A DNA stretch of 64,000 nt from Candidatus Binatia bacterium (GTDB lineage Bacteria > Desulfobacterota > Binatia > Bin18): positions 3,850,105 through 3,914,104 of the forward strand of contig OY729511.1 of the NCBI GenBank assembly GCA_963422435.1, written 5' to 3'. Position 1 is the stretch's first letter, and each line of letters begins with the position of its first letter. Below, piece after piece: positions 1-21,898 of the stretch. The notes below the pieces were generated by a model. The model searched no databases. It saw only the letters and a program-made list of their open reading frames with translations, and was not told the origin of the DNA. Made by a program: the position numbers and the translations under genes.

Positions 1-221
1 TCATACGGCCACTCGGCGATGCAAGCACGAAGATTCAGGCGTGCGGTCACCACGTCCTCGTTCAGGTGGAGCACGGGGAAACTCTGGGACGGATGCCACC
101 GCCCCCCATGTTCCCGCGCGAAACCGGGATTGATCGGGTCTGTCCACGAAGGGTCGGCGATACGCCACCAGTCGTGACCATAGGGAAGCGTCTCTCGAAG
201 CAACTCCACCGCCAGTCAGCC

Positions 222-707: not shown

Positions 708-935
708 TACCGAATGTCAACCTCGGACTCTGAACCCCACAGGGAACGGTTCTGCTGGATGTCAGAGCCTCCACAATACAAAGAGGGATACCGCTCCAGC
801 AGGTATCCCAATGAAGATACGATTATCTTTTCGGATTCCTGTGTCACTCTCAGTCTTCCAACAAGAGAGCGATAACGCCTCTGGGCTTCAGTACCAGGGC
901 CGGATACACTCTCTCTCACGACGCAATCCAATACG

Positions 936-3818
936 ATGAGCCATAAGAAGGGCCTGCCAATATCAATGCCTACGCAGCGCAATCGTGAAGAGGTCGTCAA
1001 TACGCAACTTGCCGTGTTGATCTCACAGCTCGGCGTCACGGCCGACGCCGAAACCATTCATGTTCACGGCAAACACAGACCCGATGTGCTGTTCCAGCTT
1101 CGCGGCCTGCGGGCTGTCATCGAGGGCAAGTTTGCCGACGTGTCGAACGCCAAACAGATCGTCCTGGACGATGCCCGCAAACGCGTTCGGGCCGGCATTG
1201 CCCACATCGCTGCGGCAACCGTCTATCCCGAGCAACTTCGCACCACGCCCACCACGCAGATGCTTGATGTGCTGGCCGAGGCACGGCTGCACTACTGCAT
1301 TATTACCGAGACCTCCGAAGGCGATGAATGGTTCGAGGGGAATCCGGCGGCGCTGATGGAAGCCCTGCGCCGGGCGCAAGAGGCGCTCAGCCAAGATGAT
1401 CTCGTTGAGCGGACAGCCAAAGCGCTGCATGGCCGACTGGTCAGCGTGACTCAGCTCTGGCTGGGCCAGGCCGGCGCGTGTGACCGTCTGTCAAACATTC
1501 TCGGTATCACCCCGCCGAAAGGTGAGACACCAGACAAAGCCCAAGGCCGGCGCGAAACAGCGGCTAAGGTCTCGGCCCTGGTACTGGCCAACGCGCTGAT
1601 TTTTCAAGAACAGTTGGCGATAACGGATGGCCGGATCACCCCGCTACGCAAAATCGAAAAGGAAGCCGATTTAGTTGGCGCTATTGCGAAGCATTGGCAC
1701 TGGATATGGGAGAACATCAACTATGTGCCGATTTTCCAGCTCGGTGAGCGCGTGCTGGATGAACTGCCGAGCAATCTCAGCACCACGCAGGCCGTCAGCG
1801 CAGTACTCTCACAAGCCACAGCCATTTGCGAGCAACAGGCCGCCCTCCGCCATGACCTGATGGGGCGCATCTATCACTGGCTGCTGCACGAAGCGAAATA
1901 TCTCGGCACCTATTACACCTCGGTGCCAGCCGCTACCCTACTGCTCAAACTGACCCTGTCGGCGCACTGGAAACAGGACTTGGGCGACCCCGCGGAATTG
2001 GCGCACTTCAAGGTGGCCGACCTGGCCTGCGGAACGGGCACGCTGCTGATGGCGGCAGCCCAGGCATTTTCCGACGCGTACATCAGAACACGCGCGGCCT
2101 CAGACAGGCCGCTGGGCCAGCCGGAACTTTCGACACTGCATCGAACCTTGATGGAGCATATGTTGCACGGCTATGACGTGCTGCCTTCAGCCGTGCACCT
2201 GACGGCCTCGACCCTGGCCCTGCTCGCCCCGGACATTGCCTTTGTGCGGATGAATCTGTTTGTCATGCCGCTCGGCGTGGACCAGGGGCAGGCGCGGTTG
2301 GGCAGCCTGGATTTTCTTGACAACAGAGCACTCAGAACACAGATGGCACTTGACTATTCGCAGATTGAGACCGTCCGTACCGGCGCGTCCATGTCCCAAG
2401 AAACGAACGCGACGCTGCCCAAGCTGGACCTGTGCGTGATGAACCCCCCCTTTGTCCGTAGCGTGGGCGGCAACCTGCTCTTCGGTTCTCTGCCGGATGA
2501 ACGCGGCGTCCTGCAAAAAGACCTCAAGAAGCGACTCACGCACCTGCCAGCAAGTGCGACCGCTGGGCTGGGCAGCGTATTTGTTGCCCTGGCCGACAAG
2601 CACCTGGAAGTTGACGGACGGCTGGCCTTCGTCCTGCCGGCGGCCCTCGCTTCGGGCGAAGCCTGGGGGCCGACGCGCCAACTGCTCGCCGAGAGCTACC
2701 ATCTGGAAACCGTGGTTTCGAGCCATGACGCCGAGCGGCCCAATTTCTCGGAAAACACCGACTTGTCCGAACTGTTGTTCATCGCCCGCAAGCGCGGCAG
2801 CGGCGAGAAGTCGGGCAGAACGACCTATATCAGCCTGTGGCGCAACCCGCGCTCAATTCATGCAGCCCTGCACTTGGCGAACGCCATCGAGCATGTTGGC
2901 TCCATTGTCGGTATTGAAGAAGCCGGCATCACCGGGGCCAAGTTGGGAGACGAAAAGCTGGCCGAATTGATGACGCTGCCGGCCGCGTCGCCAGACGATA
3001 TTTGGCTCGGCGCGCTCTTTGCCCAAGTGGAATTGCTGCGTATTTCTTGGCACTTAGCGCAAGGCAGGCTGTCGATTCCAGGCTCAACGGAGAAAATGCC
3101 GATTCCCCTGTGTCCACTCCATGATCTCGGCGCACTCGGCCCGGACCGGAAACGGATACACGAAGGGTTCAAGGTCACAAAATCCGACTGGACGCCATTT
3201 CCGGGCTTCTGGGGACACAAGGCGGACGAGGTGACAACCATCGCGCAGACACCGAACTGCAAACTGCTGGAATGGCAGGATTCCCCGCGTGGTCCACACT
3301 ACGGGTCTCATCTGTGGCAGCGCGCGGGTCGAATACTTCTCGTCGAGCGATTATGGCCAATCACTCAACGGGTTTTAGCAGTGGGATTTGAGGAGAAAGT
3401 TCTCGGTAATACATGGTGGGCTTTCGACGAGTCTCAGTTGAATGAACTGCAACGGAAGGCACTGCTTGTATGGCTCAATTCGACCCTGAGCCTGCTCTTT
3501 TATTTTGGCCGGCGGACGGTCACACGGAGTGCCTGGATGCAGATGAAGCAGCCGGCTTGGGCGTCCATGCCGGTGCTCAATGTACGCAGTCTGACGCAAG
3601 AACAACTCACACCGCTTGCCAACGCCTATGACGAGGTGGCCTCGCAATCGCTCGCTCCGCTGGCACAGTTGGACGCCGACCCGGTTCGTATCCGCATTGA
3701 CGCTACCCTCTGCGCGGTTCTCGGCCTTCCCGCAATCGCCTCTGTTCGTGCCCTGCTCGCCCGTGAGCCGGGACTGACCGGGCGGAGGATTGGAGGGTCT
3801 ATTGTTAAAGCTGGATAG
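936..3818 (+). CDS. Single-chain type IIL/IIG (MmeI-like) restriction-modification enzyme: N-terminal PD-(D/E)xK nuclease, gamma-class N6-adenine methyltransferase, C-terminal target-recognition region
   Basis: 960 aa. Candidate PD-x13-EGK nuclease motif near the N-terminus (HRPDVLFQLRGLRAVIEGKF). SAM-binding motif I (VADLACGTGTLLMAAAQ) at ~aa 360 precedes motif IV (CVMNPPF) at ~aa 505, which is the gamma-class order. A ~450-aa C-terminal extension could be the target-recognition domain. Confidence 0.55.
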   Translation: MSHKKGLPISMPTQRNREEVVNTQLAVLISQLGVTADAETIHVHGKHRPDVLFQLRGLRAVIEGKFADVSNAKQIVLDDARKRVRAGIAHIAAATVYPEQLRTTPTTQMLDVLAEARLHYCIITETSEGDEWFEGNPAALMEALRRAQEALSQDDLVERTAKALHGRLVSVTQLWLGQAGACDRLSNILGITPPKGETPDKAQGRRETAAKVSALVLANALIFQEQLAITDGRITPLRKIEKEADLVGAIAKHWHWIWENINYVPIFQLGERVLDELPSNLSTTQAVSAVLSQATAICEQQAALRHDLMGRIYHWLLHEAKYLGTYYTSVPAATLLLKLTLSAHWKQDLGDPAELAHFKVADLACGTGTLLMAAAQAFSDAYIRTRAASDRPLGQPELSTLHRTLMEHMLHGYDVLPSAVHLTASTLALLAPDIAFVRMNLFVMPLGVDQGQARLGSLDFLDNRALRTQMALDYSQIETVRTGASMSQETNATLPKLDLCVMNPPFVRSVGGNLLFGSLPDERGVLQKDLKKRLTHLPASATAGLGSVFVALADKHLEVDGRLAFVLPAALASGEAWGPTRQLLAESYHLETVVSSHDAERPNFSENTDLSELLFIARKRGSGEKSGRTTYISLWRNPRSIHAALHLANAIEHVGSIVGIEEAGITGAKLGDEKLAELMTLPAASPDDIWLGALFAQVELLRISWHLAQGRLSIPGSTEKMPIPLCPLHDLGALGPDRKRIHEGFKVTKSDWTPFPGFWGHKADEVTTIAQTPNCKLLEWQDSPRGPHYGSHLWQRAGRILLVERLWPITQRVLAVGFEEKVLGNTWWAFDESQLNELQRKALLVWLNSTLSLLFYFGRRTVTRSAWMQMKQPAWASMPVLNVRSLTQEQLTPLANAYDEVASQSLAPLAQLDADPVRIRIDATLCAVLGLPAIASVRALLAREPGLTGRRIGGSIVKAG

Positions 3819-3936: not shown

Positions 3937-4053
3937 GAATGAGCGCTTACGGACTTATGGGATTCGCTGGACTCCTCATGGTTGCAGGAATGATTAGTGA
4001 CGTCGTAGGGCAGGTCGTCAGAGAGGCCGGGCGAGTTTCGCTGTAAGGATTGA
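3937..4053 (+). CDS. Candidate small membrane peptide (38 aa), speculative
   Basis: ATG preceded by GGGAGG at -8. Hydrophobic N-terminal helix (YGLMGFAGLLMVAGMI). Sits in a lower-GC intergenic stretch. A 9-codon mini-ORF upstream ends in ATGA, which overlaps this start. Confidence 0.2.
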
Positions 4054-4089
4054 GAGTGACAAACTGAGACGGTTCGACAGATCAGCCCC

Positions 4090-20650: not shown

Positions 20651-21898
20651 ATGAAAGTATCCATGTTTCACCTGATGCCCTACCGGGACCTGCCGGATGA
20701 TTTTGAACAACGCTACCACTCGGTCTGGGTCGATCCGCCCTGGACGGAACTGGGCGACGCCGAGAAAGTCGGCCAGTACTATAACTGGACCCTTGACGAA
20801 CTGATCCATGCGGCAAAAGCCGGTGTGGATGGGGTCTGCGTTAATGAGCATCATCAGAATGCCTATGGCTTCATGCCCAACCCCAACCTGATGGGCTCGG
20901 TCCTGGCGCGGGCCACCAATGGGATGGACGTGGCCGTGGTGCAGATGGGATCTACGCTCCCTACGACCAACCCGCCCACACGCGTAGCCGAAGAGTACGG
21001 CATGCTGGATACCATAAGCGGCGGCCGCCTGGTGGCCGGCATGCCGCTGGGAACGGCCATGGATGCCACCTTGTGTGCGGGTATCACCCCGATTGAGCAG
21101 CGCGAGCGCTATTACGAAGCCCACGATTTGATCCTCAAGGCTTGGACCGCAGATGAGATATTCGCCTGGAACGGCAAATACTATCAGCTCCCCAAGGTCA
21201 ACGTCTGGCCGCGGCCGATCCAACAGCCGTACCCGCCCGTCTGGATTCCCGGACTCGGCAGCCTCAGCACCTGGGAATTTGCCGCTCAGCACAACCACTG
21301 CTACTGCTTTTTGAGCTATTACGGCCCCAAGGCGGGTAAAAACGTGATGGACGGGTTTTGGCAATTTATCAGCGAGCGTGGCGTTGAACCCAACCCCTAC
21401 CGTGCCGGCTTTCTGCAACTCGTGGCCGTGGCCGAAACCGACGCCAAAGCCGAAGCCTTGTACGAAAAGCATATCCAGTACTTCTATAACAAATCCCTGC
21501 ATATCCCGCCCGAATACTTCTTCCCGCCGGGCCACCAGGATTATCGCAGCCTGGAAAATAATATCCGCAAGGGCATCTTCAAGAGCTATTTCGATAAACT
21601 CGACGCCATCCCGAACTGGAAGTTCAAAGACTTTGTGGACGAGGGCTTTGTGATTGCCGGCAGTCCGGCAACGGTTCGCGACCTGCTCACCGATGCCGTC
21701 ACCGACCTGCGGATCGGCAATTTGATGGTCTTGCTGCATATCGGCTCCATGCCGCATGACTTGACCCTCAAAAACATCGATATGTTCACCAGCGAAGTCA
21801 TGCCCCATATCCACGATATGTGGGACAACCAGTGGGAGAATCACTGGTGGCCGGAAAAGCTGCGGACCAAGCGCCAGGCCTCCATTGCAGCCTTGTAA
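20651..21898 (+). CDS. LLM-class flavin-dependent oxidoreductase
   Basis: 415 aa luciferase-like monooxygenase-like translation; SD AAGGAGG upstream. Confidence 0.8.
   Translation: MKVSMFHLMPYRDLPDDFEQRYHSVWVDPPWTELGDAEKVGQYYNWTLDELIHAAKAGVDGVCVNEHHQNAYGFMPNPNLMGSVLARATNGMDVAVVQMGSTLPTTNPPTRVAEEYGMLDTISGGRLVAGMPLGTAMDATLCAGITPIEQRERYYEAHDLILKAWTADEIFAWNGKYYQLPKVNVWPRPIQQPYPPVWIPGLGSLSTWEFAAQHNHCYCFLSYYGPKAGKNVMDGFWQFISERGVEPNPYRAGFLQLVAVAETDAKAEALYEKHIQYFYNKSLHIPPEYFFPPGHQDYRSLENNIRKGIFKSYFDKLDAIPNWKFKDFVDEGFVIAGSPATVRDLLTDAVTDLRIGNLMVLLHIGSMPHDLTLKNIDMFTSEVMPHIHDMWDNQWENHWWPEKLRTKRQASIAAL

Follow-up and report, generated by a model that had tools for sequence, protein, structure and literature searches.

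A lone gene of a Candidatus Binatia genome encodes a putative single-chain type IIG restriction-modification enzyme of MmeI-style architecture

Does a bacterial gene that is readily recognised as encoding a DNA adenine methyltransferase also encode the nuclease that would make its product a complete restriction-modification (RM) system? The question is raised by an open reading frame (ORF) near one edge of a 64,000-nt stretch of Candidatus Binatia DNA (contig OY729511.1 of assembly GCA_963422435.1, forward-strand positions 3,850,105 to 3,914,104), which was analysed at its full length and is called the window throughout this work. The original prediction, made from the letters of the sequence, took the product for a single-chain, MmeI-like RM enzyme encoded next to an orphan antitoxin. 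Enzymes that combine restriction and modification in one protein are an established means by which bacteria defend themselves against phages. According to our analyses, the best explanation of the gene is a self-contained, lone type IIG RM enzyme built in the style of MmeI (type IIL-like), which belongs to a family distinct in sequence from both MmeI and BpuSI; we assign this reading a probability of about 0.65.

The frame is open without interruption from position 936 to position 3818 of the forward strand (960 codons), as had been described. However, the homologues of the enzyme all start with M-x-x-Q-R-N-R-E-E, a database protein that is 100% identical to it (P0001) is 950 aa long, and the DNA homology of the gene to other Binatia loci begins at nt 966. 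Because these three lines of evidence agree, the true start is probably the second ATG, at nt 966, and the protein of 960 aa envisaged earlier is probably one of 950 aa. Residue numbers given below refer to the 950-aa protein, unless stated otherwise; those of the original prediction are higher by ten. The homology search revealed 2642 homologues at E<=0.001, of which the best 120 are 63-100% identical to the enzyme over nearly its full length, and for this reason we regard the gene as real.

A model of the full-length protein, calculated with AlphaFold (AF2) from 30 homologues (mean predicted local distance difference test score, pLDDT, of 74), falls into five parts, comprising residues 1-145, 146-315, 316-625, 626-825 and 827-935 (Table 1). 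The assignment of the third part as a gamma-class N6-adenine methyltransferase core is confirmed by the Pfam family N6_Mtase (40.1 bits, the cut-off being 20.4; the match to Eco57I is weak) and by the presence of motif I, DLACGTGTLL (nt 2019-2048), and motif IV, NPPF (nt 2442-2453, followed by VRSVGGNLLFGS), both of which are invariant in the alignment. The PADLOC models MTase_I, MTase_II and IIG also match the protein, and all matches obtained from PADLOC and NCBIfam are of the generic methylase kind. A C-terminal region of ~450 aa had been ascribed to the enzyme, and 454 residues indeed follow NPPF, but approximately the first 130 of them still belong to the methyltransferase fold in the AF2 model. 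When the full model was compared with the PDB using Foldseek, BpuSI ranked first (E 2.6e-12, with a full-length alignment); CamA and M.BseCI came next, ahead of BrxX/PglX and DrdV, and the E-values were 1e-8 to 1e-12 overall. Sequence searches of the PDB with the protein itself, with the full-length profile and with the profile of the N-terminal domain (N-domain) found nothing relevant. The predicted structure and its full-length match to BpuSI indicate that the type IIG/IIL layout in one chain holds at the level of predicted structure: endonuclease, methyltransferase and recognition parts are combined in a single polypeptide, the endonuclease part being recognised solely by its motif and topology.

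It is the N-domain that would have to do the cutting. A candidate PD-(D/E)xK element had been noticed in the first 70 residues, and it is there: RPDVLF occupies residues 48-53 and EGK residues 63-65 of the 960-codon ORF. However, D50 and E63 are 12 residues apart, and the spacing is therefore PD-x12-ExK and not x13, as initially thought. In a separate AF2 model of aa 1-155 (pLDDT 80; the N-domain alignment was assembled from substrings of the proteins found in the homology search), the domain has the topology a-b-b-b-a-b-a-b-b-a, in which D40 opens strand 2, E53-x-K55 ends strand 3, and E29 (codon at nt 1050-1052) is located just before strand 1. In an alignment that extends down to 37% identity and includes both fused and split forms of the enzyme (see below), E8 and E9 (codons at nt 987-992), N12, E29, P39, D40, E53 and K55 are invariant. 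Residues were also counted over 463 aligned N-domain sequences, taking as the denominator the sequences that cover each column; the aspartate is kept in 443 of 445 relatives, the glutamate in 444 of 450 and the lysine in 409 of 450, and all three residues of the D-E-K triad are present in 205 of the 215 full-length proteins and in 142 of the 156 stand-alone N-domain proteins. Positions 8 and 55 (nt 987-989 and 1128-1130) co-vary, with E8/K55 in 380 sequences and Q8/E55 in 21 (including P0180, P0191, P0209 and P0212). This pairing suggests that helix 1 touches the ExK strand, and the Q8/E55 sequences possibly represent a PD..ExE variant of the active site. The mean pairwise identity of the N-domain is 0.59, compared to 0.66 for the methyltransferase, and conservation so close to that of the methyltransferase would not be expected of a domain in decay. 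The archaeal plasmid homologue, which is 25% identical, and the haloviral relatives retain a PD..ExK of their own. Taken together, the sequence conservation and the model suggest that the N-domain is probably a nuclease.

Several observations weigh against this assignment or would be cited in favor of a solitary DNA adenine methyltransferase. In such a protein the N-domain would have no catalytic function, being either a relic or a module for DNA binding or regulation, and the methylation of one motif would serve epigenetic control or shield host or plasmid DNA from the restriction enzymes of other cells, without any cutting. The nuclease fold expected at the N-terminus was never matched with significance: in the Foldseek search of the N-domain against the PDB the best E-value is 0.023, although the list of weak matches is enriched in members of the PD-(D/E)xK superfamily (Hjc resolvase, tRNA-splicing endonuclease, XisH, Cas4 and R2 endonuclease). 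In the Foldseek search against a viral library, where the list of weak matches is again rich in PD-(D/E)xK proteins, the best match (E 8.9e-4) is an unnamed viral protein. The only Pfam nuclease match is CoiA_nuc (E 0.009), found for 5 of 26 members, and an hhalign comparison in which the cleavage domain of FokI was set against the profile of the N-domain gave no alignment, which is a weak test, as FokI was represented by a single sequence. The loop that precedes D40 (aa 23-39) is modelled at low confidence. Models of protein families detect the methyltransferase only, the database names of the family proteins are just "N-6 DNA methylase" or "hypothetical protein", and we found no published biochemistry or methylome for family members in the literature. 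K55 is replaced by E or R in a few per cent of relatives. From the genomic side, a solitary methyltransferase would be consistent with the stable synteny beside housekeeping genes in several Binatia genomes and, in particular, with the situation on the mobilizable plasmid pUSP4 of Aminobacter sp. MSH1. There, the family member (L092 5213-10825) has a DUF5710/Toprim gene on one side and an ArdC-type anti-restriction gene (ArdcN plus a zincin metallopeptidase) on the other, a setting that would also suit a protective orphan methylase; the MSH1 genome paper is without methylation data.

Nonetheless, in a relic one would not expect E29, D40, E53 and K55 to be almost unchanged from bacteria to archaeal plasmids and haloviruses, nor the domain to stay nearly as conserved as the methyltransferase to which it is attached. 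The change of K55 to E is paired with that of E8 to Q, which looks compensatory rather than a sign of decay. The topology of the N-domain and the placement of its conserved residues fit the description of the MmeI family, and the domain is kept as a gene of its own in more than 100 split systems. On balance, we consider it unlikely that the protein is a solitary methyltransferase.

The split systems were revealed by a search of 1.84 billion representative proteins with a profile of aa 1-155, which found 456 proteins, many of them approximately 185-205 aa long; the N-domain-only "hypothetical proteins" of ~189 aa form a real family. In the three genomes with split forms that were examined (Table 1), the ~189-aa N-domain gene and the start of a gene of ~792-805 aa have 20 nt in common, and one such ~792-aa product aligns to residues 188-942 of the window enzyme with 46% identity. 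The point of gene fission lies at residue ~187, in the first linker of the spacer, after "CDRLxxLLGI". As both versions of the gene exist, the N-domain is an autonomous module, found fused to the remainder of the enzyme (as in the window) or split from it into a subunit of its own. The same search space contains a few unusual architectures, some of which may be artefacts of gene calling or assembly: P0167 (433 aa) comprises the N-domain, the spacer and the C-terminal region without the methyltransferase, P0180 (1376 aa) comprises the N-domain followed by long repeats, and P0252 (675 aa) has a glycosyltransferase-like N-terminus that precedes the N-domain.

The opposite pattern of conservation is observed in the fourth part of the enzyme. 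Residues 640-790 form its least conserved stretch, with a mean pairwise identity of 0.42 compared to 0.66 for the methyltransferase, and at the level of 60% identity they fall into 21 clusters, compared to a single one for the methyltransferase. One Binatia locus, L009, encodes a product whose identity to the window enzyme is 93-96% over the spacer and methylase but drops to 45% in aa 640-790; at the DNA level the homology stops at nt ~2891 and resumes at nt ~3324. The difference between these two near-identical genes is a clean cassette swap. Likewise, three copies in a Methylocella metagenome-assembled genome (MAG; L025, L040 and L044) are 90-96% identical to each other in the N-domain and spacer and 43-67% identical in aa 640-790, with the reservation that multiple copies in a MAG may be artefacts of binning. 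Judged by its pattern of divergence, this segment behaves as would be expected of a target-recognition (specificity) domain.

If the protein is a type IIG RM enzyme, the following mechanism can be proposed. The recognition region (aa ~626-825) and the gamma-class methyltransferase would clamp one specific DNA sequence, and the methyltransferase, by virtue of DLACGTGTLL and NPPF, would methylate an adenine using S-adenosylmethionine (AdoMet) and thereby mark the host DNA as self. In unmethylated incoming DNA, the N-terminal PD-x12-ExK nuclease, with E8/E9, E29, D40, E53 and K55 as the candidate catalytic residues, would cut at a fixed distance from the site, while the helical spacer of ~170 aa would keep it off the site itself. 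With one catalytic site per chain, a double-strand cut would be expected to require two molecules, as in MmeI. Changes of specificity could arise by divergence or by cassette exchange of aa ~640-790. In this scheme we infer the nuclease activity and the role in defence, and also, by analogy to characterized enzymes, the methylation of one strand and the cleavage at a distance.

The genomic surroundings of the gene are consistent with an enzyme that acts on its own. As stated in the original prediction, there is no separate methyltransferase or specificity gene nearby: we found no other within ~10 kb of the enzyme gene. The other NPPY and DPPW strings of the window belong to ORFs of unrelated function and were rejected as methylases (the DPPW at nt 20732, for instance, sits in a luciferase-like monooxygenase). 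The genes downstream of the enzyme gene encode a luciferase-like monooxygenase, an FAA-hydrolase, a glycyl-tRNA synthetase and a CoA-transferase. No companion methyltransferase was seen in 90 other loci that contain family members, and all-against-all clustering of the ORFs from 87 loci revealed no gene that travels with the family, but only spurious ORFs overlapping the enzyme gene and synteny specific to particular lineages.

These results bear on the possibility that the protein is the methylase subunit of a larger system (BREX PglX-like, MADS mad2-like or DISARM-like), the other genes of which lie elsewhere in the genome or off the window. It is brought to mind by weak matches to the models of BREX-6 PglX, MADS2/mad2 and DrmMI, by the structural likeness to BrxX/PglX in the Foldseek search, and by a weak match of the neighbouring helix-turn-helix (HTH) protein to mad1. 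However, the scores are far too low, with 15 bits for BREX-6 PglX, where 900 are required, and 15.7 bits for MADS2, where 720 are required, and the matches extend over no more than the HTH motif or the core common to methyltransferases in general. Moreover, no conserved neighbour recurs in the 90 loci, which represent many phyla, and the genes downstream in the window are metabolic. We find it very improbable that the enzyme is a part of such a system, and its membership in BREX or MADS is contradicted by the scores and the context.

The closest relatives identified by the genome scan are found in Candidatus Binatia (77-92% identity), and the same scan revealed the family in Acidobacteriota, many Alphaproteobacteria, Competibacteraceae, Chromatium, Desulfobacterales, Sulfobacillus, Ignavibacteriota and Gemmatimonadota. 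This distribution is patchy and crosses phyla, between which the identity is 60-70%. Members of the family are also carried on two plasmids (55-61% identity) but on only two of 2.9 million viral contigs, and some MAGs have two to three copies (Methylocella L025/L040/L044; Desulfococcaceae L059/L064/L065). The family is widespread but uncharacterised, with no described member. Within Binatia, three loci have the same genes downstream of the enzyme gene as the window has, four are homologous to the window over nearly nothing but the ORF (966-3798 in L079, 974-3798 in L007 and L008, and 895-3798 in L058), and a further group has the enzyme gene near topA, which makes at least three different contexts in all.

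It is tempting to consider such a gene as a selfish single-ORF element, whose nuclease cuts empty alleles or unmethylated genomes for the sake of its own spread or retention, in a manner resembling homing or addiction. The near-confinement of the Binatia DNA homology to the ORF (in L079 and L007/L008, with ~70 nt further upstream in L058), the presence of the gene in at least three contexts, the identity of 60-70% across phyla, the two to three copies in some MAGs and the carriage on plasmids would all be compatible with such a lifestyle. However, the gene is not regularly accompanied by an integrase, a transposase or terminal repeats, the same patterns are normal for RM genes that undergo horizontal transfer, and the multiple copies in MAGs may result from binning. 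Hence, a purely selfish role appears very unlikely to us. A related reading, in which the proteins form an independent lineage of lone single-chain RM enzymes that serves as a minimal mobile unit, transferred as a bare ORF, with a nuclease that may aid its spread or persistence and can be detached as a subunit of ~190 aa, is also improbable in our opinion, albeit not to the same degree. The interpretation of the protein as an RM enzyme is reasonable and is now better supported than in the original prediction, namely by the invariance of the motif, the modularity of the domains and the swappable recognition segment.

The remaining question posed by the locus is whether the enzyme is functionally connected with the genes on its other side. 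The divergent neighbour had been described as an orphan Xre/ParS antitoxin that forms, together with the enzyme, a small defence islet at the edge of the window. The neighbour does encode an Xre-like HTH protein, although the match to PF20432 is below the threshold (Table 1). It is not an orphan: a fragment of a RES toxin gene begins 12 nt past the antitoxin stop codon and exits the window at nt 1. Both matches, to PF20432 and to RES, score slightly lower than Pfam requires, and only a part of the toxin gene lies in the window. An Xre-like HTH gene directly followed by a RES toxin gene is the arrangement of RES-Xre systems (ParST/MbcTA-type), which the neighbours resemble in the antitoxin-then-toxin order, the Xre-like HTH and the start of the RES domain. 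This pair is absent from the vicinity of the enzyme gene in all 90 other loci. In its place, the syntenic Binatia loci have an intact gene of 198 aa with a DUF2617 domain just upstream of the enzyme (L009 5286-5882, with E 8e-18 for the DUF2617 match, and L049 5315-5911), of which the window retains a remnant. As this gene is intact in the syntenic loci and only a remnant in the window, the RES-Xre pair is a later local insertion, which took the place of the remainder of the DUF2617 gene. The neighbours are therefore an ordinary RES-Xre pair, complete in the genome and functionally separate from the enzyme, and the presumed defence islet is an accident of this particular genome rather than a functional unit.

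Upstream regions of other family members were also inspected. The genes of ~157 aa found upstream in Mesorhizobium and Acidobacteria loci were considered as possible kin of the HTH protein from the window and turned out to be unrelated to it. In two Acidobacteria loci (L004 6481-8001 and L005 4437-5442), the 1-1.5 kb upstream of the enzyme gene contain no called gene or convincing ORF. In the window, the scan for promoters and terminators yielded no signal above chance. An imperfect 14-nt inverted repeat flanks the enzyme gene (842-855 and 4048-4061, TGTCACTCTCAGTC / GATTGAGAGTGACA) and is within the expectation for chance. The coordinates of the features are collected in Table 1.

Table 1. 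Features of the enzyme gene and its surroundings; positions refer to the window, except for the split loci, which are given in the coordinates of the respective locus.
Feature	Position	Strand	Basis and remarks
Enzyme gene, 950 aa	966..3818	+	frame open from ATG 936; conserved start at nt 966 (second ATG)
Small alpha/beta N-domain, aa 1-145	966..1400	+	candidate PD-(D/E)xK endonuclease; AF2 model, motif
PD-x12-ExK motif RPDVLFQLRGLRAVIEGKF	1077..1133	+	P39, D40, E53, K55; translation
All-helical spacer, aa 146-315	1401..1910	+	model helices 146-313; separates nuclease-like and methyltransferase domains
Gamma-class N6-adenine methyltransferase, aa 316-625	1911..2840	+	Pfam, PADLOC, Foldseek, motifs I and IV
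Beta-rich target-recognition-like region, aa 626-825	2841..3440	+	AF2 model; variable core aa 640-790, nt 2883-3335
C-terminal helical region, aa 826-935	3441..3770	+	model helices 827-933, pLDDT ~90
Xre-like HTH antitoxin gene, 161 aa	222..707	-	PF20432, 24.2 bits (cut-off 25.8), E 4e-5; divergent from the enzyme
RES-domain toxin gene, N-terminal ~70 codons (71-aa fragment)	1..210	-	Pfam RES E 3.3e-4, profile positions 2-44 of 157; gene continues beyond the window
DUF2617 gene 3' remnant, last ~28 codons	~790-875	+	DNA homology 790-847 to L049 and L009; common C-terminal peptide YPNEDTIIFSDSCVTLS
Split two-gene loci	L087 8001-10932; L089 8001-10929; L090 8001-10971		N-domain gene and spacer-methylase-recognition gene

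We hope that these results will draw attention to a group of proteins whose nuclease domain, spacer and recognition region lie outside any Pfam model. If the enzyme is active, its family would represent lone RM enzymes with no described member, common in bacteria of soil and sediment (Binatia, Acidobacteriota, Rhizobiales, Competibacteraceae and Desulfobacterales) and present on plasmids. The combination of a conserved scaffold with a short variable segment, as in the MmeI family, with natural swaps of this segment and with fused and split versions of the gene, could be useful for reading out the relationship between residues and specificity and for engineering new specificities. Should the interpretation as a mobile unit transferred as a bare ORF prove true, the natural split forms would offer a ready-made system for studying the coupling between recognition and cleavage. 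For the purpose of annotation, "putative type IIG restriction-modification enzyme" appears preferable to the plain "N-6 DNA methylase".

Comparison with enzymes of known structure and function places the window enzyme in a broader context. With MmeI it shares the presence of everything in one chain, the order of the five parts and nearly the same boundaries, which in MmeI are 1-155, 156-300, 301-620, 621-825 and 826-919, the last part being a C-terminal helical bundle (PMC4833311). The catalytic residues of MmeI are D70, E80 and K82, accompanied by the conserved E51; in the fold, the aspartate opens strand 2, ExK closes strand 3 and the glutamate is near strand 1 (PMC2731913). The placement of D40, E53, K55 and E29 in the window enzyme agrees with this description of the MmeI family (PMC2731913), with the difference that the spacing is PD-x12-ExK as compared to that of D70/E80/K82. 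Common to both enzymes are also one catalytic site per chain, the lack of a companion methylase, and conservation throughout except for the recognition region, and the MmeI family member DrdV is among the structural matches of the window enzyme (E ~2e-8). On the other hand, the window enzyme differs in its motif IV, which is NPPF followed by VRSVGGNLLFGS, its family includes split two-gene forms, and the similarity to MmeI over the whole length of the sequence, by which the MmeI family is defined (Morgan 2009), is missing. None of the Pfam domains MmeI_N, MmeI_hel, MmeI_Mtase, MmeI_TRD and MmeI_C matches the window enzyme (at E<=1 for the whole protein and E<=10 for its N- and C-terminal parts), and there is no match in PDB sequences either. 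Thus, the description of the protein as "MmeI-like" is appropriate with respect to architecture but not to sequence, and the enzyme is outside the MmeI family as defined by sequence.

BpuSI (PDB 3s1s), the best structural match over the full length, comprises a nuclease domain (6-174), a helical connector (175-289) and a gamma-class methyltransferase (293-579), followed by a recognition domain, and the PD-(D/E)xK active site at its N-terminus is formed by E21 from helix 1 together with D60, E76 and K78 (PMC3185434). Both proteins thus have a glutamate in helix 1 in addition to D...ExK, and as E21 belongs to the active site of BpuSI, we regard the putative contact between residue 8 in helix 1 and K55 in the window enzyme as comparable. 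Nevertheless, the two proteins exhibit just 12% identity and a TM-score of only 0.26-0.28, the latter because the orientations of the domains differ. Furthermore, BpuSI requires two companion methylases encoded in its operon (PMC3185434), while the family of the window enzyme does without them. The best superposition of the methyltransferase and recognition part is obtained with CamA and M.BseCI (target-normalised TM-score 0.6-0.65), which, however, lack the nuclease-like N-domain and the helical spacer.

Finally, the true distant homologues of the enzyme are gp38 of the halovirus HRTV-10 and a protein of the Methanothermobacter plasmid pRMAS01, which are 25-28% identical to it, have a similar length (~956-975 aa) and align in the same register, with motifs of their own in the N-domain (QPDF..GEAK in gp38 and HPDILF..VIEVK in the pRMAS01 protein). 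They are named "type IIG restriction modification enzyme" and "N-6 DNA methylase", respectively, both names being annotations by the depositors. The gene for gp38 in Halorubrum tailed virus 10 (L094 1979-4906; 975 aa, 27% identical over the spacer and methylase) adjoins an integrase gene, and a relative of the gp38 type is also carried by ten haloviruses related to HRTV-10. For Eco57I, the Pfam cut-off is exceeded by both distant homologues, and the pRMAS01 protein also exceeds that for MmeI_Mtase (gp38 reaches 25.2 bits compared to the required 27), while the window enzyme passes neither. Therefore, as far as sequence comparisons are concerned, the window enzyme is linked to the Eco57I/MmeI methylase lineage only via these distant homologues from a halovirus and an archaeal plasmid.

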